Of a stretch of 64,000 bases of DNA, positions 2,074-19,500 are shown one piece after another; position 1 is the first letter of the stretch, and each line of letters begins with the position of its first letter. A program made the translations under genes and the position numbers. The DNA comes from Bacteroidaceae bacterium (GTDB lineage Bacteria; Bacteroidota; Bacteroidia; Bacteroidales; Barnesiellaceae_A). The stretch spans positions 1,043-65,042 of the forward strand of contig JAFXAB010000001.1 of the NCBI GenBank assembly GCA_017522135.1, read 5' to 3'. The notes under the pieces are model-generated. The model worked only from the letters and a program-made list of their open reading frames with translations. It was not told where the DNA came from and searched no databases.

Positions 2074-2128
2074 ATTGATACAGTTTGTTTGTTATGGAGG
2101 GCGGACGTGCCACCCTCCGTTATTAGTT

Positions 2129-2482: not shown

Positions 2483-2505
2483 TGTTATAGAATATTTGTT
2501 TGTTA

Positions 2506-2544
2506 GAAAAATGGCAGTGCGGAGGCAGCAGCCCCCACACTGCC
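2506..2544 (-). terminator. Rho-independent terminator after the DGR-target-like gene
   Basis: Minus strand GGCAGTGTGGGGGC-TGCT-GCCTCCGCACTGCC then ATTTTT; the mismatches are G-U wobbles only on the minus strand. Confidence 0.7.
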
Positions 2545-2550
2545 CCTGCA

Positions 2551-3138: not shown

Positions 3139-3197
3139 ACTGTTGTTGTTTTTAATTGGTTTGATAAAACTTTTGATAATGATTAAATGTCTCATTG

Positions 3198-3365
3198 CTA
3201 TTTGTTTTTTGGTTCAAAGTCTGGGCACTCTTTCAACTTCTCCTTGTATGCAGGTGGTATCCACCACAAAGGCATATCGGGAGGGTCGGGTAAGTATCGT
3301 TTACACTTATTACGAATGGGGCAGGTAACGCCCGAACAATATGCATAGTCTGTGTTCATACTCAT
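3198..3365 (-). CDS. Small Cys-rich phage protein
   Basis: YCSGVTCPIRNKCKRY...CPDF pattern; likely start at MSMNTD. Confidence 0.65.
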   Translation of the reverse strand: MSMNTDYAYCSGVTCPIRNKCKRYLPDPPDMPLWWIPPAYKEKLKECPDFEPKNK

Positions 3366-3366
3366 T

Positions 3367-4098: not shown

Positions 4099-4807
4099 CT
4101 TTCTCTGTTTTTTTTCTATTCACTATGCGTAACCACGAATTGAAGTGCTGTTTTGCATCTGCCAATGATTGGTGTCCTCGCTCTTTGCCGTCTGCCACAC
4201 ACTGTACCCGAAAATCATCAAGGCTGTTCCGTAGCAGCTCTATTTTCATTGAGTGGAGTACCTGTAATTGGTCGAGCCAACATTCATCTGCTTTCAGTTT
4301 CTCAATCTCTTGGTCAAGCGTTAGCGAATATGGTTCGTAACGTGGTGGTGTGTCTTGTTTATCAGTCTCTTTTTTCGGTTGATTGTTTGCCTGCCTATGA
4401 TTACGTGGTTGTCTTGGGGCTTGCTGTGCAAGCAGACTGTAATCTGTGATTTTACACACTCGGCGGCATTGAATACATATACGACTGTATCTCTCTTGAA
4501 TACCCTTTGATGTAAGCACTCCCTCCGCATCGAACAAATCCTTTGAAAACAACCCGAGTGACAGGCAGGTCTTTATAACCTCCAATACATACGCCTCGTC
4601 AAAGCCCGTCAGTTCCGAGCAGATGAAAGGCAACTCTTCGTCCCACTCAATGTAATACCCATTCTTGTAGATGTTACAGAGCAGCAGAGCATATATCGAA
4701 ATGGCTTTACCACCTTGATACTTGATTAGTTTCCTTATCTTTATGTCGCTGAAAATATCTATATCCATCGGAAAGTATTCCAGCCCTTTTTTTGAAGTTC
4801 GTGCCAT
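4010..4807 (-). CDS. DUF4373 (Lin1244/Lin1753-like) phage replication initiator
   Basis: MAR..KKGLEYFPMD...IYKNGYYIEW...LTSKGIQERY N-terminal domain. Confidence 0.85.
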   Translation of the reverse strand: MARTSKKGLEYFPMDIDIFSDIKIRKLIKYQGGKAISIYALLLCNIYKNGYYIEWDEELPFICSELTGFDEAYVLEVIKTCLSLGLFSKDLFDAEGVLTSKGIQERYSRICIQCRRVCKITDYSLLAQQAPRQPRNHRQANNQPKKETDKQDTPPRYEPYSLTLDQEIEKLKADECWLDQLQVLHSMKIELLRNSLDDFRVQCVADGKERGHQSLADAKQHFNSWLRIVNRKKTEKDDNSKSKGRNQRRGNVLSPDEPKTYGDTF

Positions 4808-4813
4808 AGAGAG

Positions 4814-5272
4814 TTAATCGTTTTTCAAATAATCGTCCACCTCACGTTTGAAATCGTCAAAGGAACGACACACCACATATTTGTACTCGCTGTCAGCACA
4901 GACGATGTTCTGCCATTGCTTTTGGCTGTCTCGCTGTCTGCCTTTGAGAGTTTTCATTTCAATGAGCAAAGCACCGTAGTCCCGGTTGCTTTTCAATAGG
5001 ATGAGGTCTGCCACCCCTGCCACAACTCCCTCGGCTTTCAGTTTTGCCGCCGTAGTAGCATCACGCCTGCCACCATTAGGAACGGCGAACAGTCTGCCGT
5101 GAAGCCTGGGATATTGGAGGGAGAACCACCGCACACACGCACATTGTATGCGGTGTTCCTCATCCTTGTGTACCTTTCGAGTTTTGACAGCGTTCTTTTT
5201 AGCCATCAACTCATCGAAAGTCATTCTATTCGCTGACATTGCTTCAGCGATTGTTACTTTACTTTTCGTCAT
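4814..5272 (-). CDS. VRR-NUC domain nuclease
   Basis: EHRIQ..FAVPNGG.R..LKAEGVVAGVADL..IEMKT..Q..SQ. Confidence 0.9.
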   Translation of the reverse strand: MTKSKVTIAEAMSANRMTFDELMAKKNAVKTRKVHKDEEHRIQCACVRWFSLQYPRLHGRLFAVPNGGRRDATTAAKLKAEGVVAGVADLILLKSNRDYGALLIEMKTLKGRQRDSQKQWQNIVCADSEYKYVVCRSFDDFKREVDDYLKND

Positions 5273-5705
5273 ACTTTGCAGGGTAATAATCCAATATCTG
5301 TGTCTCGACAATGGAAACTATTTCGTAATCTGCCATTGTTCCTTTCATACCCTCAATGAAGCGGTCGTATGCGTTCTTGAAGTCCGAAGCCTGTACGAGA
5401 ATGAAACTGTTGGTCTTTTTCTCGGCTCCGCTCTTTTCGTCAAGGGTGATGAAAGAAACCTTTATTTTGTAGTAGCGGTCTGCCGACACATCTTCGGAGA
5501 GCATCAGTTCTGAAATACGAGGCTTGACGATTTGGGGAATGCTAAACTCGCCACTGATGTAGGGTTTCAGTTCCTCGATAGTTCTTGCCTCTGCCTCTGT
5601 GAACGAGAGCGCATCAAAAAGATACTGTTCGCTTACTGTCTTGTTGAGTCCGTTTTCCATTGTCTTTTCGTAGCGGACTGTCGAAAGGAAATAGTTTACC
5701 ATCAT
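5259..5705 (-). CDS. DUF4494 family protein
   Basis: VRYEKTMENG..YLFDALSFTEAE..DEKSGAEK..MKGTMADYEI..ETQILD. Confidence 0.9.
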   Translation of the reverse strand: MMVNYFLSTVRYEKTMENGLNKTVSEQYLFDALSFTEAEARTIEELKPYISGEFSIPQIVKPRISELMLSEDVSADRYYKIKVSFITLDEKSGAEKKTNSFILVQASDFKNAYDRFIEGMKGTMADYEIVSIVETQILDYYPAKYDEK

Positions 5706-5983
5706 TCTTTCAAGTTCATACGGTTTTTCAATTCTTTGCTTAACACGAGTTTGGCGGTGCTCTGTGCCGGAATGCTGACAACAGTACCCTTGCTGATGTT
5801 GCGAGCCTTTTTAGGGGCTGTGGTAACTGCCTTGATTGTTGCAAAGCCACGAATGAACACACTCTCACCCTTTACGAGTGAACTGCTGATAGCCTCTACC
5901 ACGCTTTCGGTGGCGGCGATTGCCTGCGAACGACTTAAAGTCGTGTTGTTGATTACGTAATCAACGATGTCATTTTTCTTCAT
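5702..5983 (-). CDS. HU family DNA-binding protein (phage-encoded)
   Basis: IRGFAT..KKARNISKGT..IPA HU/IHF signature. Confidence 0.9.
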   Translation of the reverse strand: MKKNDIVDYVINNTTLSRSQAIAATESVVEAISSSLVKGESVFIRGFATIKAVTTAPKKARNISKGTVVSIPAQSTAKLVLSKELKNRMNLKE

Positions 5984-6149
5984 TTTGAACTGAATTAAAG
6001 GTGAATAATTTCTTTTCTAACTTCTTTATCATTTGTCGTATAACCCACGCACGACAGTTGTTGCGTTGTCCGGGCAGGGTGTTATATACTTTGGCAGCAT
6101 CATCGAAATACTTGATAATCTTCTGCACGTCTGTTTTGCATATATCCAT
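5970..6149 (-). CDS. Small phage hypothetical protein (59 aa, MDICKTDVQKIIKYFDDAA...), below the ORF-track cutoff
   Basis: Hand-translated; start coupled to the helicase stop (TAATG) and fills the gap to HU. Confidence 0.65.
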   Translation of the reverse strand: MDICKTDVQKIIKYFDDAAKVYNTLPGQRNNCRAWVIRQMIKKLEKKLFTFNSVQNEEK

Positions 6150-7585
6150 TATCCCGATGTGTTGAGGAAGAGATTAACCAACTCATCGAAGTACATTTCA
6201 TCGGTTGGTATATCATCGTCCGAGTTCATTATTTCACTCGCAATAGATTTCTTGCGATGTATGAGGTTGTAAATGGTGTGGTCGATTGTGCCACGTCCGA
6301 GCAGGTAGTAACAGGTTACGTTGTCTTTCTGACCTATGCGGTGCGCTCTGTCCTCACATTGGCAGCAGTCGGCATACGTCCAAGCCAATTCAATGAATGC
6401 CACGTTTGATGAGGCTGTAAGTGTCAGCCCCACTCCGGCAGCTTTGATTGAGCAGATGATGAGGTTTACATCGGGGTTGTTCTGGAACGCATCGACAGAT
6501 GCCTGTTTGTTTACCATACTATCACGTCCTGTAACCGTTACCGCACGAGGGAACACCTTTTGCAGTTCGTCCACAATCTCGTGAAGCGAGCAGAACACGA
6601 TGAGTTTCTTTCCGCTGTCGAGGAATGTGCGAATGAAGTCCACTGCCTGCGCTATCTTGCCTTTGGTGGCCAAGGAACGCAACGTCATAAAGCGAACAAG
6701 TGCTTCCATACGCATTTTGCGGCGTATCTCCCAATCGGTACACTCGGTGTACTCCTGCAAGTATGCGGCAAGGTCGGCGGCAGCAAGGTTGTATTCCTTA
6801 TCATTGGAAATCTCCACGTACAAGTCCACTCGTGTTTTGTCGGGCAACTGCGGCAGCACCTTTGCTTTCTCTCGGCGTATCATACAGGTATCGTATAACT
6901 GCTTTGAAAGAACAGACAGAGGTACGGCAGGAACGGCGGTCTTGTCTTTGGGGTCGGTGCAGTAGTCTGCCATAAACTTGGCACGTCCTCCAAACTCGCC
7001 TATGCGGTCCAATATGGAGAGTTGGGTGATTAAATCTTCGGGGCGATTGACAACAGGTGTACCCGACAGGAGTATGCGGTATTCCTTGCCAACGGACAAA
7101 CCTTTTGTGAAGATTGTCTGCTGTGCGGAGGGGTCTTTTACACGGTGGCTCTCATCTATGATGATTGATTTGAACTGCTGCATCTGCGGACAGAACACAA
7201 CGTCTTTCAGTCGGAACTGCTTGCCGCCCTTGATGTCCCACACGAAGTATTTGCGCAGGCTCTCATAATTGACAATGGCGACCTGATGCACGCCCATTGA
7301 GAGGAGATAACCCCACGTGGTGCGGACGTTATTGTCAAGCACAAGTGCGCTCTTATCGGTGAATTTCTCGAACTCACGTTGCCAATTGATTTTGAGCGAG
7401 GACGGACAGATAACGAGGCAGGGGTATGCTCTTGCTGTATCGACTATGCCAATGCTCTGCAATGTCTTGCCCAATCCCGGCTCATCGCCGATGATAATGC
7501 GCTTATGCTCCAACCCGAAGCAGATGCCCTCACGTTGGTATTCGTAAGGCTCGACACGCAGATTATGTTTCAGTATATTGTTCAT
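6149..7585 (-). CDS. SNF2-family (SMARCAL1/HARP-like) helicase
   Basis: GDEPGLGKT, IIDESH, LSGTP, GVGLTLT, QCEDRAHRIGQ. Confidence 0.93.
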   Translation of the reverse strand: MNNILKHNLRVEPYEYQREGICFGLEHKRIIIGDEPGLGKTLQSIGIVDTARAYPCLVICPSSLKINWQREFEKFTDKSALVLDNNVRTTWGYLLSMGVHQVAIVNYESLRKYFVWDIKGGKQFRLKDVVFCPQMQQFKSIIIDESHRVKDPSAQQTIFTKGLSVGKEYRILLSGTPVVNRPEDLITQLSILDRIGEFGGRAKFMADYCTDPKDKTAVPAVPLSVLSKQLYDTCMIRREKAKVLPQLPDKTRVDLYVEISNDKEYNLAAADLAAYLQEYTECTDWEIRRKMRMEALVRFMTLRSLATKGKIAQAVDFIRTFLDSGKKLIVFCSLHEIVDELQKVFPRAVTVTGRDSMVNKQASVDAFQNNPDVNLIICSIKAAGVGLTLTASSNVAFIELAWTYADCCQCEDRAHRIGQKDNVTCYYLLGRGTIDHTIYNLIHRKKSIASEIMNSDDDIPTDEMYFDELVNLFLNTSG

Positions 7586-8022
7586 TACTTAAAGTTCTCT
7601 ATCTCTGTGATTAAATCTTTTTTATCTATCCCTTTGAGGTACTTGTATAGCACAAGGTCGATGCACTGATTGTAGAAGCGTTCAAACTCGTGTTGTTCCA
7701 TTGCCGAGAATGATATGCTTTGGTATTCTATCTCCTTTTCGCCTCGTTCGTTGAGGCTTGTTTTGAAGTAGCCCAAGTCTCGCTTGAAGCGGCGCAGCAT
7801 ATCTTCCTCATTGTGGACTTTGAAATATTCTGCAAGGTTGGACGGCAGGTTGTCAAACGTGATGCGCACCAATGCAAAGAACTTCTTGTGATGTTCGTAG
7901 TTGCGAGGGTTGCTAACCTTGCACTTGACAACAGAGCCGACACGTAGCCGTTTCTTCAAGTCGTAGTCGCTATCATAGAGCGGCACAAGACCGTGAGCCG
8001 TTACCTTGCAGAATATATCCAT
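7585..8022 (-). CDS. DUF1367-like phage protein
   Basis: PRNYEHHKKFFAL...SISFSAMEQHEFERFY. Confidence 0.8.
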   Translation of the reverse strand: MDIFCKVTAHGLVPLYDSDYDLKKRLRVGSVVKCKVSNPRNYEHHKKFFALVRITFDNLPSNLAEYFKVHNEEDMLRRFKRDLGYFKTSLNERGEKEIEYQSISFSAMEQHEFERFYNQCIDLVLYKYLKGIDKKDLITEIENFK

Positions 8023-8027
8023 AGGGC

Positions 8028-8249
8028 TTATTTTAAGTCATCTGCTGATGCTATCGCAATAGCGATTAGCGCAATTCGTACTTCTACTGCGTCTGCTCCA
8101 AACTTCTTGAAGTCCATTGATATTGGAGCCTTTGTAAGTTCAGCCCAACGCTCATCTGTCAATTTTTCCCTCATCAACATCATTGTTCCGACTACTTCGT
8201 CTCTGTCAAACTCGACTTCGAGTTTCATTTTCTTGTTTTCTTCTGCCAT
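8028..8249 (-). CDS. Phage hypothetical protein
   Basis: 73-aa ORF fitting the operon. Confidence 0.65.
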   Translation of the reverse strand: MAEENKKMKLEVEFDRDEVVGTMMLMREKLTDERWAELTKAPISMDFKKFGADAVEVRIALIAIAIASADDLK

Positions 8250-8259
8250 AATTCTTTGA

Positions 8260-8934
8260 TTATAAATTGTTGTTAGTTACAGGTGGGCATAAGCACCAAT
8301 ATTGAAATGCCAATTCTTCGTATTTCTCACGACCACGATTATAGACCTCATCGCCACGATTTATGAACTTCTTGAATATGCAGCAGTTCTTTTTGCTGAT
8401 GGCGTAGATGAAATCACGGTTGCTCTTTGCGATGTCCATATACCAGGCACGACTCCTGTCCCAATCGAAGAAATCAACAGCTTCCTCGAACTGTTGCTGT
8501 GTGGCGGCGAATGTTGTTTTGAGGTCGCCACCGAAGCCACCGAGCCACCAATCCCATTTGCACCGGGTATCGAGCGTGAACGGAAATTCGCAGTATGTGA
8601 ACTGCTGTGCCTTATTGACCATAAAGCGTTGCGTTTCGGCGCATTCAAGAACTTTGGCAAGGAACGCATCTTTGCGTGCTTCCATACGGAGAGCCTTTTG
8701 CATTTCCTGTGCGTGTCGGAACTCATCTTCTGTGTATGGCACATCGTCCACTGTTAGGCGGTAGTAGTCCACCTTTGACGGCTCTGTGATGATGGCATCG
8801 ACCAACGAGCCGAAGCGGAACGCCGCCTCTTTGTCTCCGAACTGCATACGTGGGTGTAAGATGTTTTTCAGTTCGGTGAGGTCAGAGTTACTGACCTCAC
8901 TTCTGCTGTAATAATTATCGCTCATAGTAATCAT
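8260..8934 (-). CDS. PD-(D/E)xK exonuclease (RecE/ExoVIII-like)
   Basis: YY...VSNSDL, FGSLVDA, RCKWD, DLKTT motifs; close to RecT; start likely 8934 or 8925. Confidence 0.75.
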   Translation of the reverse strand: MITMSDNYYSRSEVSNSDLTELKNILHPRMQFGDKEAAFRFGSLVDAIITEPSKVDYYRLTVDDVPYTEDEFRHAQEMQKALRMEARKDAFLAKVLECAETQRFMVNKAQQFTYCEFPFTLDTRCKWDWWLGGFGGDLKTTFAATQQQFEEAVDFFDWDRSRAWYMDIAKSNRDFIYAISKKNCCIFKKFINRGDEVYNRGREKYEELAFQYWCLCPPVTNNNL

Positions 8935-9226
8935 CGTAATCTTCTTCGTACTCAACCTCGCCGACACCATCACACACTTCGCAGGTCTCCTTTTCGCCTC
9001 GTATGTAATGTTGTCGCTTGGCTTCTGCTTCTTCCTCTGTCTCGGGGAGACACAACCACGTTTCTTCTGTACATTCGGTCTCTTCGTTTGTCTCGAAGTT
9101 GTAGGCGTGCCAATGGCAACCTTCACCGTTACAGGCTTCGCATTTTACATAGTGAGGCTCTTTCTCGTTCCACGGCGCACGTGGGTCGTGTTCTGCTCCG
9201 GGTGGGTAGTATCCGCTTTCGTACAT
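8915..9226 (-). CDS. Phage zinc-finger protein (two CxxCxGxG motifs)
   Basis: YPPGAEHDPRAPWN, CEACNGEG, CEVCDGVG. Confidence 0.75.
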   Translation of the reverse strand: MYESGYYPPGAEHDPRAPWNEKEPHYVKCEACNGEGCHWHAYNFETNEETECTEETWLCLPETEEEAEAKRQHYIRGEKETCEVCDGVGEVEYEEDYDDYYER

Positions 9227-9228
9227 AG

Positions 9229-10422
9229 TTACTTTGCTTTTACGTCCTCGACATATTCCACACTCTCATCGCTGATGTACGTTCCCTCTTTGGCGAGTTT
9301 TTCACAGAATGTTATCTGCTTCTTGAACATCTTGGTGAGTTCCTCAACAGAGAGGTGGCAACCCTCCTTGCTCCACCACATAGAGAGAATAGGCATAATG
9401 CCCTCGGGATTGAGCAGGTTGATTTTCTGTGCAACCTTTACCTTTGGTTGGTAGCCGGAGGATACGACTGCTTGCTGACCGAACAGGCTTTCCATTTCGG
9501 ACTGCTGACGTGCCATTTCTGCCTTCTGCTTTTCCTCTTCCTCCTTGCGGCGGCGTTCTGCCTCCTGTTCCTCGGCTTCCTTGCGCTGACGTGCTTCCAT
9601 TTCTTCCTTGATACGTGCAGCTTCCTCGGCTGATGCCTGTGCCATACGTTCGAGGTTGGTTTTCTTGGACGGCAGACGGTCGATGATGTACTGCTTTGTG
9701 CTGTCTATCTCGAACTCGTATTGCTCCTTGAACTGCTTGGCAAGGCGTTCCTTTGTCTCAATCTCTGCCTTGCGTATCTCATCTACTGTTATTCCGGCAG
9801 GAATGCGAATAAGGGTGTGCAGGTTGTAGAGGAAGTCGGCAGGAAGTTCCGTTGAATAGTCCTTAACCTGCTTGAATGATGCTTCGTAGTTGTCGAGGGT
9901 AACGGCATTATCAATGGCAGTCAGAGCGTTGCAGTCTCTGTTCACAAGGGATTGGAACTGCTGTTTGAAATCGTCCTCGATGTCCTGTCGCATCTTGGTA
10001 CGTGCCGCCTCTGCCTGTTGGCGTTCGTACTCCTTACGGCGGCGTTCCTCCTCATCGGCACGTTTCTTGGCGGCGAACTTATTGCGGAACTGTTGTAACT
10101 TGAATGGTATTGTACCTTCTTTGGTAGGGTCGATGGCATTCTCCATTACTGTGAACTCCTTGCGGATTGTGTCGAACAGTTGGGTAACAGGCGCACGGCG
10201 TTCGTTCATCTTCTTGACGGTCTTGCGTGCTTTCTCAATGTACTGTGCCGCACGTTGGTCGAGTTCGTCCGTCATTCCTCCTTGCACAATGGCATCGAGG
10301 ATTGCTTTCCCGGCAGCTTCGCAGTTCTCACGAGATAGTTTGTTGTCCTTATAGGACTGTGGAGCGGCAGACACAATAGTCTGTATATTCTCCTGCTTGA
10401 TAATTGCTAATTCCTGTGACAT
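9229..10422 (-). CDS. Phage coiled-coil protein of the recombination module
   Basis: 397 aa, E/K/R/A-rich coiled coil, between RecT and the exonuclease. Confidence 0.8.
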   Translation of the reverse strand: MSQELAIIKQENIQTIVSAAPQSYKDNKLSRENCEAAGKAILDAIVQGGMTDELDQRAAQYIEKARKTVKKMNERRAPVTQLFDTIRKEFTVMENAIDPTKEGTIPFKLQQFRNKFAAKKRADEEERRRKEYERQQAEAARTKMRQDIEDDFKQQFQSLVNRDCNALTAIDNAVTLDNYEASFKQVKDYSTELPADFLYNLHTLIRIPAGITVDEIRKAEIETKERLAKQFKEQYEFEIDSTKQYIIDRLPSKKTNLERMAQASAEEAARIKEEMEARQRKEAEEQEAERRRKEEEEKQKAEMARQQSEMESLFGQQAVVSSGYQPKVKVAQKINLLNPEGIMPILSMWWSKEGCHLSVEELTKMFKKQITFCEKLAKEGTYISDESVEYVEDVKAK

Positions 10423-10434
10423 AGTTGTATGGGG

Positions 10435-11385
10435 TTAGAATGTGTCGTCTGCATTGTCTGATTGCTGTGCAGGGTCGATTGTTACACCTGCGGACATATC
10501 GGGTGCAGGTGCGAAATGCTGTTCCTGCTGTTGAGGCTGCTCTGTTCCAACACCGCCGTATGGGTCGATGTCTGTCTGTTGTTGCTGCTCGATGATTTCA
10601 GTTTCGAGAGCGGAGCCACGACCGATATTCAGTTTCGGGTAGGTCTTGAAAGCGTGCTTCACGCACTTTGCCATAAGGAAACCTGTGTCTATCTGACCGT
10701 CTTTGTTGTAGAGTTCGTTAGGCTTAACTACATATTGACGTGTCTTGCTGTCGAAGTAGGTGTTCTGCTTGTCGCTGTAACCTTTGAGGCGCATCCAATC
10801 CTGTTCAGTCATCACAGAATAGTCTATCGTACCATCGGCACGTGTAATCTTCAAGAAACAGGCAATAATCTTGTTGGACTTGCGAGGGAAAGCGGACATA
10901 TAGTTCACTATCTTTTGTCCGTTCTGTTCGCCGTATTGGAATGTGTCGCCCTCGTACACGATTACAGGATTGTCGGCGTGGCGTATCTGTCCGGCATTCT
11001 TGCGCAGCACTAATTCGCCATACCCCGAAATGGTAAGGTTGCAGACTTTCTCCCAAATGTCGTTGCCTTGTTGGTTTGTGCCTACCTTGACATTGCGAGG
11101 AATGAGGTAACAGAGTGCCTGTGCGCCCGGTGCAAGGGTAAGTCCCTTTACAGCAAGGTCAATAAAGGCATAGAAGATTGATGTACCAGAGCATTCACGC
11201 AGGTTGGCTTTGTCTCTCAACTGTTGGTTGAAGTAGATTGCTTCACGCTCGTACACCTGTTCTCCGCCCTCTTTCCAAATGGAGTTATAGACGTTGATGA
11301 ATTGACTACGGACACGCTCATTGCGTATCACATCGGTTGCTTTTGTCTGTTGCAACTCTTGGGCTAATGATAATGCATTGCTCAT
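10435..11385 (-). CDS. RecT-like single-strand annealing protein
   Basis: GLTL..CYLIP..ISGYGEL..VYEGDTF..MAKCVKHAFKTYPK; acidic tail ending DDTF. Confidence 0.82.
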   Translation of the reverse strand: MSNALSLAQELQQTKATDVIRNERVRSQFINVYNSIWKEGGEQVYEREAIYFNQQLRDKANLRECSGTSIFYAFIDLAVKGLTLAPGAQALCYLIPRNVKVGTNQQGNDIWEKVCNLTISGYGELVLRKNAGQIRHADNPVIVYEGDTFQYGEQNGQKIVNYMSAFPRKSNKIIACFLKITRADGTIDYSVMTEQDWMRLKGYSDKQNTYFDSKTRQYVVKPNELYNKDGQIDTGFLMAKCVKHAFKTYPKLNIGRGSALETEIIEQQQQTDIDPYGGVGTEQPQQQEQHFAPAPDMSAGVTIDPAQQSDNADDTF

Positions 11386-11426
11386 AATGTAAATAATTAA
11401 AGTTATTGAAATACAGTTGTCTGTTG

Positions 11427-11511
11427 TGGGAGTGACAGGATTTGAACCTGCGACCTGCTGCTGCTTGCCATTTGGGTACGTACCGCCGCTCTTCCGCTGA
11501 GCTACACTCCC
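11427..11511 (-). ncRNA. tRNA-like RNA / pseudo-tRNA with aberrant anticodon domain
   Basis: GGGAGTG/CACTCCC acceptor stem, TA-GCTC..GAGC D arm, AGGTC, GCAGG-TTCAAAT-CCTGT T arm, A73, no encoded CCA; 30 nt instead of 17 in the anticodon region. Confidence 0.75.
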
Positions 11512-11516
11512 TTATG

Positions 11517-11789
11517 TTATATCTTGAAATAGTCCTGTTTCACGTTCTGTAAAGCTCTCAACTCTGCCGTGCGGTACTCGACTTTGCCGGGACGTTTGCA
11601 AGGCTCTATCTTGCCCTCTCTGCGCCATCTATCGACATTGCCACGTCCGAACATCGTGTATGCCTGTCGTTGGCTGACTGTCTCGGGGTCGTTGCGTACT
11701 TCGGAGAGCATACGCACTACCGAAGCGGCAACATCGTGGATGAACGTCTCATAGGTAACTGACTTATCGGAAAAATCGAGTGTGAGCAT
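11517..11789 (-). CDS. Excisionase-like/HTH DNA-binding protein
   Basis: SQRQAYTMFGRGNVDRWRREGKIEP..GKVEY winged-HTH pattern. Confidence 0.7.
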   Translation of the reverse strand: MLTLDFSDKSVTYETFIHDVAASVVRMLSEVRNDPETVSQRQAYTMFGRGNVDRWRREGKIEPCKRPGKVEYRTAELRALQNVKQDYFKI

Positions 11790-11793
11790 AGAT

Positions 11794-11934
11794 TTACTTT
11801 TTATTGGTTTGACTTTGACACGCAGGTGTCTTGTCGTACTCTACATTTCGTTTGAGCAGGGTGCAGTAGCGACCATTCAACTGCTCATAGGCTTTTGCAC
11901 ACTTGGCGCAAATGGGATTGGTATGTGATGCCAT
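11794..11934 (-). CDS. Small Cys-rich phage protein
   Basis: CAKC..NGRYC..VEY..PAC; ATG at 11934. Confidence 0.6.
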   Translation of the reverse strand: MASHTNPICAKCAKAYEQLNGRYCTLLKRNVEYDKTPACQSQTNKK

Positions 11935-11936
11935 AG

Positions 11937-12164
11937 TTAGAATATGCTTAATTGATGACCACGTTTCTTTACTGTGCGTTCGTAACGCTTGCACGTATCT
12001 TTGAAAGGACAGTTGCCGGACTTGGCTTGCTGATAGGCGGAATGAAAGGTGTCCCAATCCACACCACGAAGAAATCCCATCAAGTCCATACAAAACCAAC
12101 CTTTATCCATTGATTTGTTCTCGCCTGTAATCTCGACAAGTCCGTTGCCTTTTGGTGTTCCCAT
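11937..12164 (-). CDS. Phage hypothetical protein
   Basis: 75 aa, coupled start, CPFKDTCKRY, ends QLSIF. Confidence 0.7.
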   Translation of the reverse strand: MGTPKGNGLVEITGENKSMDKGWFCMDLMGFLRGVDWDTFHSAYQQAKSGNCPFKDTCKRYERTVKKRGHQLSIF

Positions 12165-12427
12165 TATTCAAATAGATTAAAATCTAATTTCACATCTTCT
12201 GCTTGTCCTCGCATAACTTGGTAGGTAGTCGGAACAAGTTTCCTCTTCTGAAGGATATATCTTGTCGTTAATTGTATCTGTGCCACTGCTTGCGTTCTGT
12301 CATTCGGCAGCATCCATTTGGGGTGGTTATGTATGGTCCGAATGATTGCACTGGCTACCACCTGTGCGGCGTATAGGAAACCCTCATTGAAGCCGCTATC
12401 ATACTTTTGCATTTCTTCCTTTGTCAT
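12164..12427 (-). CDS. Phage hypothetical protein
   Basis: Translationally coupled ORF. Confidence 0.65.
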   Translation of the reverse strand: MTKEEMQKYDSGFNEGFLYAAQVVASAIIRTIHNHPKWMLPNDRTQAVAQIQLTTRYILQKRKLVPTTYQVMRGQAEDVKLDFNLFE

Positions 12428-12939
12428 TGCTGTTCTTTCTGATATTGTTCTACTTTTGCTTTCAGTCTCGCTTCTGCCAATGCAACACGTTCCTTTGCGA
12501 ACTCCACCTTTGCACGAATTTTCTGCAATGCAGGGTCTGTGGCTTCATCAAAGAATAAGTTACCTTGATTGGCTTTGATGTATGCTGCAACCCTGTTCTC
12601 CTGCAATGTGATTTTACTCTTCAATGCCACGAGCTGCGACAGGTCGCTTCTAAATCCGTACTTCTCACCACTTGTCTTGTCATAGAAAGACATAGTGGTG
12701 TAGATATAACTTCGAGGGTCTGCACAGACAAACTTTGCTTTGCGCCAATCAATTACCCATTGCCAACGCTCTACACTTTCACGTGGAAGGTCGTAACGAT
12801 GCAGCACGACCTCTTTTCCGTCCACCTTCTTGCAGATTAAGATTGCGACATACGCTTTAATGCTTAATTCTTTCTCTGCTTTGGCGTATGCCTTTGCGAG
12901 TTCTTGAAACTCTGCACCGATACCAACCTCCTGTGCCAT
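12424..12939 (-). CDS. Phage hypothetical protein
   Basis: 171 aa, RYDLPRE..RWQWVIDWR, C-terminal coiled coil. Confidence 0.75.
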   Translation of the reverse strand: MAQEVGIGAEFQELAKAYAKAEKELSIKAYVAILICKKVDGKEVVLHRYDLPRESVERWQWVIDWRKAKFVCADPRSYIYTTMSFYDKTSGEKYGFRSDLSQLVALKSKITLQENRVAAYIKANQGNLFFDEATDPALQKIRAKVEFAKERVALAEARLKAKVEQYQKEQQ

Positions 12940-12942
12940 TGC

Positions 12943-13140
12943 TTACTTGTTTTTCTCTTGTTGATACTCACGATAAGACTCGCGTACAAGTACCCACATC
13001 AAAAGGGCGAATAACAGAACTACGAGGAGACCGAATAAACCGATTGTGCCTTTGATGAGGTGAGCAATGCCCCAAGTGATTGTTCCGAGGAACATAAAGA
13101 CTGACATTGCAAGTTGGCTGAGGCTCATAAACTTATCCAT
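12943..13140 (-). CDS. Small two-TM phage membrane protein
   Basis: Two hydrophobic helices and a charged tail. Confidence 0.65.
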   Translation of the reverse strand: MDKFMSLSQLAMSVFMFLGTITWGIAHLIKGTIGLFGLLVVLLFALLMWVLVRESYREYQQEKNK

Positions 13141-13147
13141 AGTGATA

Positions 13148-13372
13148 TTATTTTGATGTTGAAAATTCCTCCACGACTACAAATCTCTCAACCTTTACAG
13201 GGAAATCCGGCTCACCGTCAAACTCATTGTTCAGTTTGGCACACAAATTCATATTCTTGTGTGAACGGTCGAGGTTTACATCACAGAGTAATGAGCCTTT
13301 GGCAGTCTGAAAAACCTCACGACCAAACGAGTCAAAACCGATACTCTTAATCTCAATCTTATTCATAATCAT
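13148..13372 (-). CDS. Phage hypothetical protein
   Basis: GFDSFGREVF..LCDVN..FDGEPDFPV. Confidence 0.7.
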   Translation of the reverse strand: MIMNKIEIKSIGFDSFGREVFQTAKGSLLCDVNLDRSHKNMNLCAKLNNEFDGEPDFPVKVERFVVVEEFSTSK

Positions 13373-13377
13373 TGATT

Positions 13378-13689
13378 TTATTTGTTTAATAATGTTACTC
13401 TAATCCGAGCAGGACAGGACATTACATAGACATTGCTACATCGCAATACGCAGCGTAATAAAAGCATAGCAACATCTTCGTAAGGCAAATATTTAGTTCT
13501 GAGAGCAGCCATAGCCAAATCGTTATCAACAGTGCTAATGAGTTGTAGCATTTCAATCTTTTTCAACTGAACACCATCTAACTTTGCACGACTATGTATG
13601 AACTCGAATTTGTGTGCAGGGTATCGGCTGTCTATGAACTGCGGCATATTGCATCTTAATGTCACAGCCTTACGGTCAAGTCCTTTCAT
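13378..13689 (-). CDS. Phage hypothetical protein
   Basis: Start coupled (TAATG) to the stop of the Cro-like gene. Confidence 0.5.
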   Translation of the reverse strand: MKGLDRKAVTLRCNMPQFIDSRYPAHKFEFIHSRAKLDGVQLKKIEMLQLISTVDNDLAMAALRTKYLPYEDVAMLLLRCVLRCSNVYVMSCPARIRVTLLNK

Positions 13690-13895
13690 TATGCTCTACG
13701 TGTTACGCTGATAGTTCTCTCTTGTCTATTGATGGAAGTCGAAAAGACCTTATTCCACTCAAACCCATACTCACTGCACATTGCCTTTACCGAGCCTCTC
13801 TTCTCGGCAGGAAAGACAAGAACATCGCCTACTTCCATTTCACGCAACTGTGTTAAAATCGGTTTAGAAACCGCTGTTTTCACTGCTTCATTCAT
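13689..13895 (-). CDS. Cro-like small DNA-binding protein, first gene of the early operon
   Basis: 68 aa LREMEVGDVLVFP..SVK..ISVTR, divergent from the repressor. Confidence 0.65.
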   Translation of the reverse strand: MNEAVKTAVSKPILTQLREMEVGDVLVFPAEKRGSVKAMCSEYGFEWNKVFSTSINRQERTISVTRRA

Positions 13896-13928
13896 AGTTT
13901 CTCGAATTATTTATTTAACTTAGTGCTG

Positions 13929-13960
13929 CAAAGATAAACAATTTGACAATTACAACCAAA
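13929..13960 (-). promoter_or_regulatory. Bacteroidetes sigma-A-type promoter of the early operon
   Basis: Minus strand TTTG (13960-13957), 20-nt spacer, TATCTTTG (13936-13929) = TTTG/TAnnTTTG consensus. Confidence 0.75.
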
Positions 13961-13989
13961 CAAAATGACAATTATTTGTCGATTTGTTT
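13936..13989. promoter_or_regulatory. Repeated 16-bp operator-like sites (AAACAAwwyGACAAwT)
   Basis: AAACAATTTGACAATT 13936-13951, AAACAAAATGACAATT 13958-13973, inverted variant 13974-13989. Confidence 0.7.
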
Positions 13990-14007
13990 ATAAAATATTT
14001 TTTGGAT

Positions 14008-14355
14008 ATGAATAAAACCTTGATGTTGGAGCAGTTAATCAACCATTACACAGATGGTAATAAGGCGAATTTTGCAGCGATGATAGGCATTAAGCCTCAA
14101 TTGCTTAGCAATTGGCTTAAACGAAATACATTTGATGCAGAACTGTTGTATAAAGGCTGCAAGAATATTTCAGCAGATTGGCTTTTGAGCGAAGAGGGGG
14201 ATATGATACGCGATAAACAAAATGACAATTCACAGTTTGTTTCGCAGAGTAATAGTCCAGAACTTATTGCCCTTTGCAAAGCGTTAGTTGAGAACTATCA
14301 GCAACGAGATGATGTAATGAACAAATTGGTGTCAATGGTTAAAGGGATTGAGTGA
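14008..14355 (+). CDS. CI-like HTH repressor (no S24 peptidase domain)
   Basis: GNKANFAAMIGIKPQLLSNWLKR..ISADWLL HTH; divergent from the early operon. Confidence 0.85.
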   Translation: MNKTLMLEQLINHYTDGNKANFAAMIGIKPQLLSNWLKRNTFDAELLYKGCKNISADWLLSEEGDMIRDKQNDNSQFVSQSNSPELIALCKALVENYQQRDDVMNKLVSMVKGIE

Positions 14356-15254: not shown

Positions 15255-15932
15255 ATGAATGAGAAAACCAAGCTACTACTCACAGCCCTGACAAAAGGCC
15301 TTGTAGGCTGCATGTTGATGGGCTTACTGATATTTGCCCCTGCCGGCACACTGTCGTATCATGGTGCATGGCTTTTGTTGGGTATTCTCTTTGTTCCTAT
15401 GACAATAATGGGGATTGTCATGATTATCAAATCACCCGACTTGTTGCGTCGCCGATTGGAGTCGAAAGAGCAACGCAACACACAACAAGGGGTTATCAAG
15501 CTATCGGGAGTGATATTCATCACCGGATTTATCATCGCCGGACTTGACTACCGTTGTGGGTGGTCTGATGTACCACAATGGGTAACGTACGGTAGTGCCC
15601 TACTCTTTCTCTTTGGGTATGCCTTGTATGCCGAGGTAATGCGCGAGAATGTGTGGCTGTCGCGTACTGTGCGTGTAGAGGAGGAACAAGAGGTAGTAAC
15701 TACCGGTCTGTATGGCATAGTACGCCATCCCATGTACACAGCTACGTTACTTATGTTCCAGGCCATGCCCTTGGTGCTTGGTTCGTGGTGGGCAACATTG
15801 ATTTTTCTACTATATATACCCATTATAGTGAGTCGTATAGTTGATGAAGAACGATTGCTACGGGTAGAACTGAAGGGTTACAACGAATATTGCTCTCACC
15901 TTCGTTGGAGGTTGATACCATATATCTGGTAG
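15255..15932 (+). CDS. Isoprenylcysteine carboxylmethyltransferase family membrane protein
   Basis: Multi-TM, VVTTGLYGIVRHPMY, EERLL..GYNEY..RLIPYIW; TATATTTG -7 box at 15202-15209. Confidence 0.9.
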   Translation: MNEKTKLLLTALTKGLVGCMLMGLLIFAPAGTLSYHGAWLLLGILFVPMTIMGIVMIIKSPDLLRRRLESKEQRNTQQGVIKLSGVIFITGFIIAGLDYRCGWSDVPQWVTYGSALLFLFGYALYAEVMRENVWLSRTVRVEEEQEVVTTGLYGIVRHPMYTATLLMFQAMPLVLGSWWATLIFLLYIPIIVSRIVDEERLLRVELKGYNEYCSHLRWRLIPYIW

Positions 15933-16047
15933 ATTGTCACACAATAGTTGTATACCCCCAATTATCGGTGTCATAAAAAAAGGCAAGCCACTATATCACA
16001 TAGCGTCTTGCCCAATCATGAAAAAACTCTATATAAATAGCATAATA

Positions 16048-16866
16048 CTAATCAAACATAACGCGGGGGTTCATTTGTGAGGGTGTGCGCCACTCAATAC
16101 CGTATTTATCGGCAAGGATTGCTTTTTTGATGCTCCATATCTCAAAGCACATACCCATGCCATACGGCTTGCCTTCCATGCGACGATCTACCTCTTCTTC
16201 TACAGCATCAATGACATTCTCGTATGCCTCGGTATATACTACGGGGTCGACCTTGAGATGGCCGGTGTAGGGGTTATTAATAATTTCTTTGACCATTTCA
16301 GTTCCGAGCAAAGCGTCAAACTCTTCTTTCATAGGAGCATACCATGTGTCACACTCGCTGAGTGTTGCCAAAGCGATAATCTTTTCGGCAGCCTCTTTGA
16401 GCGTATCTTCGTGAGGCTCTTTGCGACCCTTCTCGAAGCCGTATTGCAGATTGTATAGCTTCATAGTGAGGCGTGGGTGGGCTTGCAATACATAGCACAA
16501 ACGATCGATGGCTGCTACTATCATGTCGATGGTCTCCTCGTCATCGACAGTAGCACCGGTGAGCATCTCGCAGGTGTGTTGAGCCAAGGGGGCTATGAGC
16601 CACGACTTGTTGTTGTGAGCGTAAGCCTCGGCCAGCAAGCTGTTGCACATGATAAGGTCGCTGGTGTGGCAATCCTCGTAGTTGTCGCCAAGGAGCAAAC
16701 GGCGCACTGTTTCATATACGGGCAGGCTTATCTCAAATGCCTCGCTGCTATAGGGATCAAGGCATTGATGCAATTCTACTATTTGAGCTATTTTTTCGTT
16801 AATACTCAAGTTGTTGTCTTGAGCTATGGTGTTTATTTTGTCGGTTGTGGTCATGGTTATAAACAT
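16048..16866 (-). CDS. Hypothetical protein with conserved-looking C-terminal DPV..GMGxC..W..KK..YGIEW..P..MNP..FD domain
   Basis: 272-aa ORF with helical N-terminus. Confidence 0.75.
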   Translation of the reverse strand: MFITMTTTDKINTIAQDNNLSINEKIAQIVELHQCLDPYSSEAFEISLPVYETVRRLLLGDNYEDCHTSDLIMCNSLLAEAYAHNNKSWLIAPLAQHTCEMLTGATVDDEETIDMIVAAIDRLCYVLQAHPRLTMKLYNLQYGFEKGRKEPHEDTLKEAAEKIIALATLSECDTWYAPMKEEFDALLGTEMVKEIINNPYTGHLKVDPVVYTEAYENVIDAVEEEVDRRMEGKPYGMGMCFEIWSIKKAILADKYGIEWRTPSQMNPRVMFD

Positions 16867-16877
16867 TTATTGGTTAT

Positions 16878-17522
16878 TTACATAGATACCATTGCACCGC
16901 GCACATTGTCAAAGTTGCCATGTGCAAGGTCGTCGGGGTTGATGAGGAAGTACATAACACCTTCATCCATAAATCGCAGATTGTAGTCGTCGGCTTCATC
17001 GGAGTCAACTTGCAGAAGGAGTTTCCAACCCTCGCAAGGCTCGTCCCAATCTTCCCACGGCATAAAATCGGGGGTTCCGAACAGCTTGTTGTGACAGTCT
17101 GACGCATCGGTATCGGCATATTCAAACGACATTTCGCGACAAGGTATGCACACAGGCTCGTCATTATCGTCGATTATGATACACTGTTGCAACGACTCGT
17201 AGCGGTCGGGGGATATATATATAACTTTGGTATGAGATGTGTCCCACACTCCTTCTCCCGGAGTTTCCGGGTCGTCATACCCCAAGAAGCCATCGATGTG
17301 AGCAAAGAATAGGAGCAAGCCCTCTTTGGGTAATGCTGTATTGAACTCGCGCAAGTCGGCACAGTTTATCTGGCAGATAAATTGCATTTCCCACTCCTCT
17401 CCTTCGCTATCGGTGTATCGAGGAAATTCCATGTCGACCGGAAGGTCGGGCGATCCCCACCACTTACTCATAGCAAAGCGATTGTCAACAGCCAAGCGGT
17501 TATTTTTTATTTTAATGTGCAT
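16878..17522 (-). CDS. DUF1963/YwqG family protein
   Basis: SKWWGSPDLP, FICQINC, LPKEGLLLFF, LLLQVDS, FMDEGVMYFLI..DL..GNFD. Confidence 0.88.
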   Translation of the reverse strand: MHIKIKNNRLAVDNRFAMSKWWGSPDLPVDMEFPRYTDSEGEEWEMQFICQINCADLREFNTALPKEGLLLFFAHIDGFLGYDDPETPGEGVWDTSHTKVIYISPDRYESLQQCIIIDDNDEPVCIPCREMSFEYADTDASDCHNKLFGTPDFMPWEDWDEPCEGWKLLLQVDSDEADDYNLRFMDEGVMYFLINPDDLAHGNFDNVRGAMVSM

Positions 17523-17555
17523 ATAAGATATTGTTAGAGTGTTTGTATTGAATTA

Positions 17556-18221
17556 TTATCTTTCAAAAGTGAGTACGCGATCAAATCGTTCACTAAAATT
17601 GGGGTGTGACTGGCTCATGGCCTCTATCTCGGCAGGTGTTCCGGCCACGATACACACGAGGTCGTCTTGGTGTATTTGCATCATGGTTACAAGTGCATCG
17701 ATAGTAGCTTGTGCAAGTTTGCTTTTGTCGTCGTTCAACAGATGTATGTCGTCAATAAATAGCACACCACCCAATGCACTATCGACAGCATTGCGCACCT
17801 TGGCTTGACATTTCTCTATGGTTGCACCCATGAGTGCTTTGGACCATACGGCAATCATTTTATGGTTGTTCATTACACCCAATGCGTATAAAATATCGGC
17901 CATGATGCGAGCCACAGTTGTACGGCCTGTGCATGGATTACCTATAAAGAGGTATTTGTGCGGGAAACGAGAGGGATAGCCCAGCATCTGTGTGCGTACA
18001 CAATCCATCTTGACAAATTTTACAATCTCGTGTATCTCTTGTTTGACGGTTTCCAGGCCTTCCATACTGTCGAGCATGGCTATACAACGTGCAACCTCCT
18101 CGCTGTTGTATGGGAGAGAGATATCGATGTCGACAATACGACATTCTGTACCGCATTTACTGCAAAATCGGTCGTCGGTATTGAGAGCGTTGCCACATTT
18201 GGCGCATTTGAGTGTAGTCAT
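17556..18221 (-). CDS. Zinc-ribbon plus degenerate CbbX/SpoVK-type AAA domain
   Basis: CAKCG..FCSKCG; LDSMEGLETVK, GNPCTGRTTVAR, GGVLFIDD. Confidence 0.8.
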   Translation of the reverse strand: MTTLKCAKCGNALNTDDRFCSKCGTECRIVDIDISLPYNSEEVARCIAMLDSMEGLETVKQEIHEIVKFVKMDCVRTQMLGYPSRFPHKYLFIGNPCTGRTTVARIMADILYALGVMNNHKMIAVWSKALMGATIEKCQAKVRNAVDSALGGVLFIDDIHLLNDDKSKLAQATIDALVTMMQIHQDDLVCIVAGTPAEIEAMSQSHPNFSERFDRVLTFER

Positions 18222-18248
18222 GGCATATTATAGGTGTGTCGTAGGTTT

Positions 18249-18506
18249 TTATGAATAAGGTTCGGCAGGGTCTACCGAGTAGTAATCTTGCAACCAATAT
18301 AGAGCATCTTTGTGCCCTTTGTCGGCAGCTTCGTTCATCCATTCGGCTATCAATTCGAGAGCCTCCCAATTTGCTTCTTGTATATACTCGGCAAGTTCAT
18401 ATGCAGCTTCGCCATTGGGGTCATCACCTGTAGCCGCTTCGTACATTTCGTCGGGTACTTCCACTTCGTAAGTGGTGGTCTCGTCGTATTCGTAGGTAAG
18501 TTTCAT
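18249..18506 (-). CDS. Small acidic protein with Sel1-like helix
   Basis: EAAYELA..WMNEAADKGHKDALYWL. Confidence 0.65.
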   Translation of the reverse strand: MKLTYEYDETTTYEVEVPDEMYEAATGDDPNGEAAYELAEYIQEANWEALELIAEWMNEAADKGHKDALYWLQDYYSVDPAEPYS

Positions 18507-18524
18507 GGTATATGTTGTTTGTGG

Positions 18525-19346
18525 TTAATTAATCTCTTTTGACAGCTCGGTATAGTATTCACACATTTCCTTGATACCTGCTTGTGAATATAGGTTGCTC
18601 ATGAAGATATACTGTTGCTTCAAGAGCGACGTTGCCTCGGTACTGTTGGGTGCAATGGTGCGCAATATTTCCATGGCTTGCACATAGCGGTCTATGGCGT
18701 TGTTGACCATGCGCGTATTTAGGTAGAAATCGGCATATTCGATAACGATTTGGGCCAACAACATGCCTGTGTCGGTGTCGTTGCCGTGGTTGCCAACCAA
18801 GAGTTTGTCGAATGCCTCAATCGATTCGGCATAGGTATCCTCTGCCAGAATGTTGCGTCCGAAAGCGGCATAAGTATTGGCCAAAAAGTATAGTGCAACA
18901 GCCACGTTTCGCTCCCCTACTTCGCTGTTTTGCTCGGCAATCTCACGCTCGATAGCAACATGTTCTTCCATGCACTCTATGGCACGATGTACATTGACAG
19001 CCTTGCGGTGCAATTGTGCTGCATAGAATAGCGAATTGGATAGCTTGGGAAGGAAATCACCCCTATTCTCTTCGGCCTGTTTGCGTCGTAATTCTACTAT
19101 TTCGTCCTGAATATCAATCTCTTTGTTGCTGTTCTCCTCGCGCAGGGCACACAAGTTGGCATAGGTCGACAAGAAAGCTATATATTCGTCACGGTCGGCC
19201 TCGGTAGCAAGCTGCTTGTGCAAGGTGTTGCACAAGGTAATGGCTTCGTTGTATAGCACGTCGGTTGCTGTACCATCGATAGTCATGAGTTGCTCTCGAT
19301 TGTCGAGCCACTGTTTCAGTGCACCTTTATGTGTAGAATTATCCAT
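18525..19346 (-). CDS. TPR-like repeat protein
   Basis: Repeated helical A..L..LA..Y....A...Y..A motifs. Confidence 0.75.
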   Translation of the reverse strand: MDNSTHKGALKQWLDNREQLMTIDGTATDVLYNEAITLCNTLHKQLATEADRDEYIAFLSTYANLCALREENSNKEIDIQDEIVELRRKQAEENRGDFLPKLSNSLFYAAQLHRKAVNVHRAIECMEEHVAIEREIAEQNSEVGERNVAVALYFLANTYAAFGRNILAEDTYAESIEAFDKLLVGNHGNDTDTGMLLAQIVIEYADFYLNTRMVNNAIDRYVQAMEILRTIAPNSTEATSLLKQQYIFMSNLYSQAGIKEMCEYYTELSKEIN

Positions 19347-19500
19347 ATTAAGCAGAGTATGATTTTGTAAAGTTACAATTAATTTTCTGAAAAAGTAGTT
19401 GTTGAGTACTGTTTTTTTATATTTCTGTTTTTTTATTGCTATTTTTTTTGAAATTCAAGGATATATTCTAAATTTGTAACTTCATTAGATTTATAGCCTT

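Follow-up and report, generated by a model that had tools for sequence, protein, structure and literature searches.

The prophage early region and its tRNA-like element

The window, by which we mean the whole stretch of 64,000 nucleotides that was analysed, comes from a Bacteroidaceae bacterium whose genome amounts to 2.1 Mb in 56 contigs. From position 1 to approximately 15 kb it contains the early region of a prophage, read leftwards. Several small genes are followed by a gene for an Xis-like protein (xis), by the tRNA-like element that is the subject of this work, by recT, by an exonuclease VIII-like gene and by a NinB-like gene (Pfam DUF1367; NinB is its name in the cultured phage BKO1-TP3). 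Further on come genes for an SNF2 helicase, an HU-like protein, a DUF4494 protein, a VRR-NUC protein and a replication-initiator-like protein. A repressor-like gene (13984-14355) lies on the opposite strand. Host genes begin near 20.9 kb, so that the junction of phage and host is about 9 kb away from the element.

The element (Table 1) had been noticed in an original prediction made from the letters alone, as a phage tRNA-like RNA with intact acceptor, D and T arms and a scrambled, enlarged anticodon domain. The minus-strand parse given there agrees exactly with the sequence, which reads GGGAGTG TA GCTC AGCGGAA GAGC G, then 30 nt, then AGGTC GCAGG TTCAAAT CCTGT CACTCCC A; the acceptor pairs 7/7, the D and T stems are paired, and the 30-nt part includes the palindrome attributed to it. 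The placement is equally correct: the element starts 5 nt past the stop codon of the Xis-like open reading frame (ORF) 11517-11789, and its end is 41 nt away from the recT ATG at 11385. All three share one strand, and no terminator-like site adjoins the element. It belongs to what we call class A, the class letters being labels assigned in this analysis.

Table 1. Positions of the element, its parts and adjoining features in the window
Feature	Positions	Strand	Basis or remark
tRNA-like RNA element, 85 nt, class A	11427..11511	minus	sequence, Rfam RF00005, ARAGORN, class A model R1
Acceptor stem, 5' strand GGGAGTG	11505..11511	minus	7/7 pairs with 11428-11434
D arm GCTC AGCGGAA GAGC, loop GG	11488..11502	minus	sequence; stem invariant in 13/13 class A variants
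Enlarged anticodon domain and variable-loop AGGTC	11452..11487	minus	conserved in class A; different or absent in other classes
10-nt self-complementary sequence GGTACGTACC	11475..11484	minus	sequence
T arm GCAGG TTCAAAT CCTGT (GGTTCAAATCC)	11435..11451	minus	sequence; first pair G-U
Acceptor 3' strand CACTCCC and discriminator A	11427..11434	minus	sequence
3' trailer CAA	11424..11426	minus	C after discriminator, like host tRNA genes without encoded CCA
Gene for 90-aa Xis/BldC-like winged-helix DNA-binding protein (weak support)	11517..11789	minus	AlphaFold/Foldseek
recT, single-stranded DNA-annealing protein	10435..11385	minus	PF03837 E 1.1e-12; phrog_148
ACTGTATT motif, recT leader	11410..11417	minus	present in recT-linked relatives with or without element

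The tRNA model of Rfam, whose gathering score is 29, matches the element end to end with 50.2 bits (E 9e-8 over the window as a whole). Its alignment separates the first two pairs of the anticodon stem by an insertion of 26 nt. This is the sole tRNA-like or RNA-family match that Rfam and ARAGORN give in the window; a permissive Rfam scan of the element region (E up to 10) yielded nothing other than tRNA and added nothing credible. The 7-bp acceptor, the D arm with GG and the T arm with TTCRA loop of a decoding tRNA are all present. The same applies to the nucleotides which, by the rules of textbook tRNA structure, make tertiary contacts: U8, A14, the D-loop GG, G15 with C48, and the TTCAAAT T-loop with G53-C61. 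A 5-bp stem closing a 7-nt loop with U33 and purine 37 is missing, and so is an anticodon shared among relatives. The claim of the original prediction that the enlarged domain forms no 5-bp stem with 7-nt loop is worded too strongly, since a mismatched helix of five pairs (G-C, C-G, G.A mismatch, G-C/G-U, U.G) can close the domain. It does hold in so far as no 7-nt loop is conserved there among class A relatives.

Pseudo or undetermined calls had been expected from tRNA finders. Rfam returned the match described above, and ARAGORN two incompatible anticodon readings, neither of which survives in relatives: tRNA-Val(tac) without intron, with a mismatched stem and a long variable region, and, with introns allowed, tRNA-Ala(ggc) with a 10-nt "intron". 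Near-identical class A relatives are called Val-tac, Val-cac, Met-cat, Ala-cgc or undetermined; introns allowed, they become Ala-ggc, Leu-caa or Leu-aag, and the commonest variant receives no call without an intron. The presumed introns vary in place, in length (5, 8, 10, 14 or 30 nt) and in the resulting anticodon, and no consistent canonical tRNA is restored by their removal.

No close host tRNA was found for the element. Its part 11427-11458 (T arm and 3' acceptor) is 91% identical over 32 nt to host tRNA-Pro(tgg) at C23:5936-5967, and its 5' half is not similar to that tRNA. A covariance model of class A (R1), which scores the window element at 97.2 bits, was also run on 150 genomes of the order; the best canonical tRNAs there are a mixture (Arg, Gly, Lys, Val) at 53-63 bits, and no class A element was found among them. 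Two other RNA types were considered and dropped. A tmRNA has a tag reading frame and the G3:U70 pair; ARAGORN reports none, Rfam no match other than tRNA, and the acceptor has G3:C70. The bacterial Y RNA (YrlA) module has a permuted arm order; Rfam reports none, and the arm order of the element is standard.

Relatives, element classes and fixed position

Relatives were collected by two routes. Via RecT, 53 loci were fetched; via the Xis-like protein, loci came from viral contigs (80 loci), species-representative genomes (26 loci) and metagenomes (80 loci). The 185 Xis-based loci re-found by tblastn are our denominator. They are not independent: identical phages recur within and between the collections. 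The finder covered 176 nt behind the xis stop and required at least 6/7 acceptor pairs, at least 4/5 T-stem pairs and a T loop TTC followed by G or A. It matched at the xis stop in 157 of 183 full-length segments (143 strict), two of these (L157, L241) being false hits, as compared with 19 of 881 control segments (none strict), which were taken from the same loci at five other offsets. With the false hits excluded, the element lies directly behind the xis stop in 155/185 loci (73/80 viral, 14/25 genomic and 68/80 metagenomic). A canonical tRNA occurs at this site in none of the 185 loci, and the concern that close homologs might be canonical tRNAs and the window copy a single decayed allele is thus dispelled.

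The 30 loci without the element are a mixed group. They include truncated or broken contigs (L182, L202, L236), a decayed 5' half (L072), a tRNA-like sequence whose T loop is not of the standard form (L240), and also L157 and L241, the false hits; in the others the next gene begins approximately 15-35 nt past the xis stop, or a different sequence follows. At L137 and L242, which have no tRNA-like element, a GC-rich hairpin motif CCGCCGTGAGGTTCG is found approximately 30-55 nt past the xis stop; the same motif is present at L050:1468-1493. As to hosts, all are Bacteroidales except for four genome contigs (L138, L156, L161, L162) from metagenome-assembled genomes labelled Eubacteriales, Bacillota, Lachnospiraceae or Sphaerochaetaceae, labels which are probably binning errors.

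The elements fall into at least eight sequence classes. Every class spares the acceptor stem and the T arm, most keep the D arm, and no element of any class is a canonical tRNA. Class A accounts for 94 of the 155 loci; its members are 85-88 nt long, carry the enlarged domain and include, besides the window, the cultured phage BS-TP4 and locus L150 (87-nt element at 1774-1860). Classes E and F (44 loci, 60-62 nt; BKO1-TP3 is in class E) consist of acceptor, D arm and T arm, with a 13-nt linker ATCAAYNGAAAGT in place of anticodon arm and variable loop. In class B (10 loci) a stem carries an 8-nt loop GUCGUAUG, which one member replaces by an AT-rich insertion of about 40 nt. In class C (L025) the anticodon helix is long and interrupted and carries a 10-nt loop, and class D (L027) is class II tRNA-like, its 8-nt loop being GUCGUCUG and its variable arm being capped by GAAA. 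L143 and L229 represent further forms. The most reduced one is L154, a minihelix of 51 nt with only acceptor and T arm and a 19-nt bulge. The Rfam tRNA model gives 50.5 bits to the class A element of BS-TP4, 47.7 to an armless class F element and 36.6 to class D. In contrast to these intact classes, all that is left behind xis in L026 and L072 is the 5' half of an element resembling class D (GAGAGGATATCCAAGAGGACGAGG...), a clear example of decay.

When the Rfam tRNA model was run on five complete or near-complete phage genomes or records, it found only the element in three and nothing in the class B and class E genomes; therefore these phages have no ordinary tRNA genes. Standard tRNA finders miss the elements or assign spurious anticodons to them, which can mislead analyses of codon usage and recoding.

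The same gene order is annotated in BS-TP4 and BKO1-TP3, and in both records the site of the element is an unannotated gap. The original prediction had proposed to collect homologs upstream of recT. Judged by gene order, however, the gene that accompanies the element is the upstream Xis-like one rather than recT, because in the Bacteroides phage BS-TP4 the gene that follows it is SbcC-like.

Further tRNA-like elements were seen in one more distant group (L050, L051, L052), whose RecT is 64-65% identical and which has no Xis-like match. In L050 three acceptor/T-arm elements (1129-1209, 1307-1383 and 1727-1794), all with the T arm GGTTCGACCCC, are situated in a leader of approximately 700 nt between a divergent gene and the early operon. 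The middle one has a four-way cloverleaf fold with irregular arms (z -3.72).

Conservation of the frame and of the enlarged domain

Differences between classes may reflect the capture of different tRNA genes; therefore we rely only on changes within a class. When 13 variants of class A are aligned, 94.9% of the cells in stems are paired; shifting the partners by 1-3 columns lowers this to 38-58%. In four pairs both sides have changed. Three of them are in the acceptor, namely pair 6:82 (GC 7, UA 6), pair 7:81 (AU 6, GC 6, unpaired 1) and pair 3:85 (GC 10, GU 2, AU 1), and one is the first pair of the T stem, 64:80 (GC 7, AU 5, GU 1). Members of class B also differ on both acceptor strands (GGCTGCA/TGCAGCC and GGTTGCA/TGCAACC), and so do classes E and F (GATCCGA/TCGGATC and GACCTGA/TCGGGTC). 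The covariation for which the original prediction had called is hence present within class A.

For the element, the 27 haplotypes of class A (95 loci) have a mean pairwise divergence of 0.103, about four times lower than the 0.391 at third codon positions of xis (0.098 at first and second positions). Among the parts of the element, positions 8-25 (D arm region) diverge by 0.028, the T arm by 0.085, the anticodon domain by 0.111 and the acceptor, largely with compensation, by 0.178. Since 0.111 stands against 0.391 at xis third positions, the enlarged domain is under constraint and is not scrambled debris. The original prediction thus erred in taking the domain for damaged. Its broader proposal, namely selection on the acceptor and elbow shape rather than on decoding, is borne out by relatives that keep acceptor and T arms, and mostly the D arm, with compensatory changes and without a canonical tRNA among them. 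Taken together, the tRNA-like element is real, conserved and non-decoding, and its site within the early operon is constant in common phages of gut Bacteroidales.

The most striking part of the enlarged domain is its palindrome. The exact 10-mer occurs once in the window, with three copies elsewhere that differ by one mismatch. Class A has four variants of it, GGTACGTACC, GGTGCGTACC, GGTGCGCACC and GGTGTACACC, with the cores ACGT, GCGT, GCGC and GTAC, and all five self-pairs are kept in 13/13 variants (pair 32:35 is GC 7, AU 5, GU 1; pair 33:34 is CG 9, UA 4). The two central pairs cannot form within one strand, and therefore the covariation of the palindrome suggests pairing between two molecules, a lead that rests on about three substitution events. 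The predicted gain from dimer formation is -13.3 to -16.7 kcal/mol for eight class A variants, whereas nine elements of other classes reach -5.2 to -10.5 kcal/mol by trivial strand swaps only. Alternatively, the first three bases of the palindrome, on its 5' side, can take part in the closing helix of five pairs; the two states are mutually exclusive.

Partners of the domain were looked for in three places. No second palindrome copy with up to one mismatch was found in 43/44 class A loci, the remaining locus having one copy with a single mismatch. On the minus strand of the early region (1-14000) there is no antisense target of the window domain: the best duplex has -33.0 kcal/mol, and 30 shuffled domains give a mean best of -32.2 and a minimum of -38.9 kcal/mol. 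Host RNAs resembling class A domains were not found in the genome from which the window comes (blastn-short, none below E 0.01 besides the element itself). Two further candidates within the domain were dropped, a variable-region hairpin GRCC/GGWC, because the commonest variant has a G-A clash, and a small ORF starting from an AUG of the domain, which stops after 4 codons in A3 variants.

As for the genes next to the element, the 90-aa Xis-like protein has no Pfam match, its PHROG match is a family of unknown function, and a sequence search of the PDB named nothing. Its AlphaFold model (mean pLDDT 79.4) has weak Foldseek matches over approximately 50 residues to BldC, to Xis of mycobacteriophage Pukovnik and to the excisionase RdfS (E 0.04-0.4, probability 0.8-0.99). 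On the strength of this model, the designation "excisionase-like" used in the original prediction is reasonable for the fold; the function is only putative. In nearly all recT-linked loci a leader motif ACTGTATT(A/T)(T/A)AAAC precedes recT by about 20-35 nt. L148, L149 and L152 keep ACTGTATT without having the element; occurring with or without it, the motif therefore belongs to recT, for which it may be a leader or operator signal.

Several cargo genes were observed between the phage repressor region and the host genes (15255-20829), coding for a PEMT/ICMT-type methyltransferase, a DUF1963 protein, an AAA ATPase with zinc ribbon and a TPR protein. The ORF at the junction (19501-20829, 442 aa) has no Pfam match at E up to 1e-5 and no PHROG match at E up to 0.001. 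No integrase was identified.

Possible function and comparison with known systems

The acceptor and T arm together form the "top half" of tRNA, which is the part recognised by RNase P, RNase Z and the CCA-adding enzyme. We hypothesize that the element is a processing signal for RNase P and RNase Z at which the early message is cleaved and a small tRNA-framed RNA set free, a reading that we regard as quite possible and somewhat short of probable. The element would be transcribed within a polycistronic early message and would fold into the top half with a D/T elbow. Host RNase P would then cut at its 5' end, and a host 3' enzyme, probably RNase Z, would cut after the discriminator as it does at host tRNA genes without CCA. 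The message would be severed between the small regulatory genes and recT or sbcC, giving the two halves separate fates, and an RNA of about 60-100 nt would be released. The anticodon domain, absent in common forms, would not be needed for cutting and would therefore be free to vary; in class A the conserved module of 30-odd nucleotides with its self-complementary 10-mer probably has a further role. We favour the processing signal because the acceptor/T-arm helix is always kept and the D/T elbow usually, and because of the parallel with the t-elements described below. Among the three roles proposed originally (processing signal, decoy for tRNA-targeting defence toxins, tRNA-mimic regulator) it appears to fit best, while a decoy for anticodon nucleases fits poorly, since common forms have no anticodon arm.

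The host is equipped for such processing. Its genome contains an RNase P RNA (246 bits) and a nucleotidyltransferase of the CCA-adding type, as well as an RNase Z-like gene of full length, whose 280.9 bits fall slightly short of the curated 292.95. In its tRNA genes, C directly follows the discriminator in 48/50, CAA in 23/50, and CCA is encoded in 4/50. The phage elements have C at this place in all 30 unique variants, 17 with CAA and 10 with CTA. One sequencing run, taken on a guess to be RNA, has a contig in the L150 region that starts at 1775, a single base within the predicted 5' end, and a second run of that study does not cover the element; neither was counted as evidence.

Several points weigh against the processing signal. 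The element is dispensable, being absent from 30/185 loci; each phage genome has a single element-bearing junction, hence the element is no general "punctuation"; the same phage recurs across collections, so the loci are not independent; and covariation between classes may come from the separate capture of different tRNA genes. Moreover, the domain and palindrome of class A are conserved beyond what a cutting signal needs, which points to an additional or different function. That the conserved class A module and palindrome add a function in trans to the processing signal is a doubtful but serious possibility. Equally tentative is the idea that a trans-acting small RNA is the whole purpose, the tRNA frame providing maturation and stability and the function residing in a class-specific module of the anticodon domain. 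In class A the 10-mer would join two molecules, and the target of such a dimer could be a dimeric tRNA enzyme, a defence nuclease directed at tRNA or some other partner. This agrees with the low divergence of the class A domain, with complementarity kept through ACGT, GCGT (by G-U), GCGC and GTAC cores, with central pairs that are impossible within one molecule, with a dimer gain larger than in other classes, and with the different modules that other classes bear on the same frame. It is at odds with the common classes E and F and with L154, which lack any module, with the failure of early-region targets to exceed shuffles, with the scarcity of second palindrome copies and with the small number of substitution events behind the palindrome. 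We would rate still lower, as rather unlikely, the specific picture of a swappable tRNA scaffold that matures and stabilises class-specific modules, the class A dimer being a two-headed tRNA mimic acting in trans.

The remaining explanations fare worse. The fixed early-operon position between regulatory and recombination genes would suit a cis-acting regulatory RNA, that is, an element of translation or stability or an antitermination-type signal using the tRNA fold. Such a signal is improbable, as the element is retained while the downstream gene differs (recT or sbcC-like), element-less relatives keep the same recT leader motif, and the conserved T-loop and D-loop tertiary nucleotides together with the host-like trailer point to tRNA enzymes. 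Dispensability, as well as the decayed halves of L026 and L072, might indicate a tRNA pseudogene, the remnant of a captured tRNA gene whose anticodon arm is damaged. Four stem pairs with compensatory changes within a class, the slow divergence, at least eight classes that all spare acceptor and T arms, and the lack of a canonical parent at the site in 185 loci make this very improbable. We consider slightly less credible still that the element acts as DNA, be it as the tRNA fragment of an attachment site, an operator palindrome or an origin. Many Bacteroidales elements do integrate in tRNA genes, and the 10-bp palindrome adjoins the gene of a DNA-binding protein. However, the palindrome is confined to class A although the Xis-like protein is 72-99% identical across classes, which argues against an operator for that protein; in one variant the palindrome depends on a G-U pair, which makes sense for RNA but not for DNA; and a complete cloverleaf frame is present, about 9 kb from the prophage/host junction, without a second or partial copy in its own genome save the 32-nt tRNA-Pro match. 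Least credible of all is a functional decoding tRNA with an intron or expanded loop, such as tRNA-Ala(GGC) with a 10-nt intron or tRNA-Val(UAC). ARAGORN makes such calls, and in classes B and D a stem is closed by an 8-nt loop, but the calls disagree among near-identical relatives, U33 is missing, and the 7-nt loop AUGGCAA exists only in the window variant because of a 1-nt deletion. Further, the G3:U70 pair that is the identity rule of tRNA-Ala is replaced by G3:C70, and we know of no bacterial mechanism for removing insertions of 10-14 nt.

If the processing signal is real, common temperate phages of gut Bacteroidales in humans and animals have the tRNA-maturation enzymes of the host cleave the early message at a single defined site, which at the same time yields a small tRNA-shaped RNA. 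The family also offers a natural series for the tRNA top half, from the full frame through armless forms to the bare minihelix. Two cultured phage-host pairs allow testing, BS-TP4 with B. salyersiae (class A) and BKO1-TP3 with B. koreensis (armless class E). Full-text searches of the literature found no description of these elements, and a review of non-canonical tRNAs does not mention phages. In the paper on BS-TP4 and BKO1-TP3, the word "tRNA" is absent from the main text, and BS-TP4 is reported there in 31.3% of 930 gut viromes (PMC12694917). As judged from sequence, the elements are a real, conserved and so far undescribed family, whose mechanism we infer.

Compared with canonical tRNA (RF00005), the phage element shares acceptor, D arm, T arm, tertiary nucleotides, variable loop and 3' trailer, and differs by having neither a 5-bp stem with 7-nt anticodon loop nor U33 nor a conserved anticodon. 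Other viruses have non-aminoacylated tRNA-like or acceptor-like structures as maturation signals for linked functional RNAs: the TMERs of the gammaherpesvirus MHV68, and C4 of phages P1 and P7 and CI of P4, RNase P being the enzyme that matures C4 and CI. P1 and P4 are temperate phage systems, like the phage of the window. Architecture and partners differ, and C4 and CI are antisense RNAs, for which no counterpart target was found here. The tRNA-like structure at the 3' end of MALAT1 is cut by RNase P and RNase Z, which gives the end of the long RNA and a small CCA-tailed tRNA-like RNA, mascRNA, with a reduced anticodon arm. It resembles the phage element in being a tRNA-like fold inside a longer transcript; unlike it, mascRNA is eukaryotic and nuclear, its processing is demonstrated, and there is no sequence relation.

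The closest parallel, in our opinion, is provided by the t-elements of plant mitochondria. These fold like tRNA but irregularly, with a conserved T arm, and their borders match the ends of mRNAs; cuts by RNase P and RNase Z in mRNAs were proposed, and in part demonstrated, to be marked by them, and they are released as small RNAs with added C and A residues (PMC1920247). Those of Arabidopsis cox1, nad6 and ccmC are, like the phage element, non-canonical tRNA-like folds in an mRNA precursor; in both, a GGTTCRANYCC T arm and the acceptor are kept and the other arms are irregular (PMC1920247). The phage element likewise appears to lie inside a transcription unit, if the early operon is, as we infer, a single transcript. 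It differs in belonging to Bacteroidales phages instead of an organelle, in occurring once per genome at one junction, in having swappable classes, in the conserved enlarged domain with self-complementary 10-mer of class A, and in that the ends of its RNA are predicted ones. Should the proposed processing be true, the element would represent the phage counterpart of both plant mitochondrial t-elements and MALAT1/mascRNA.

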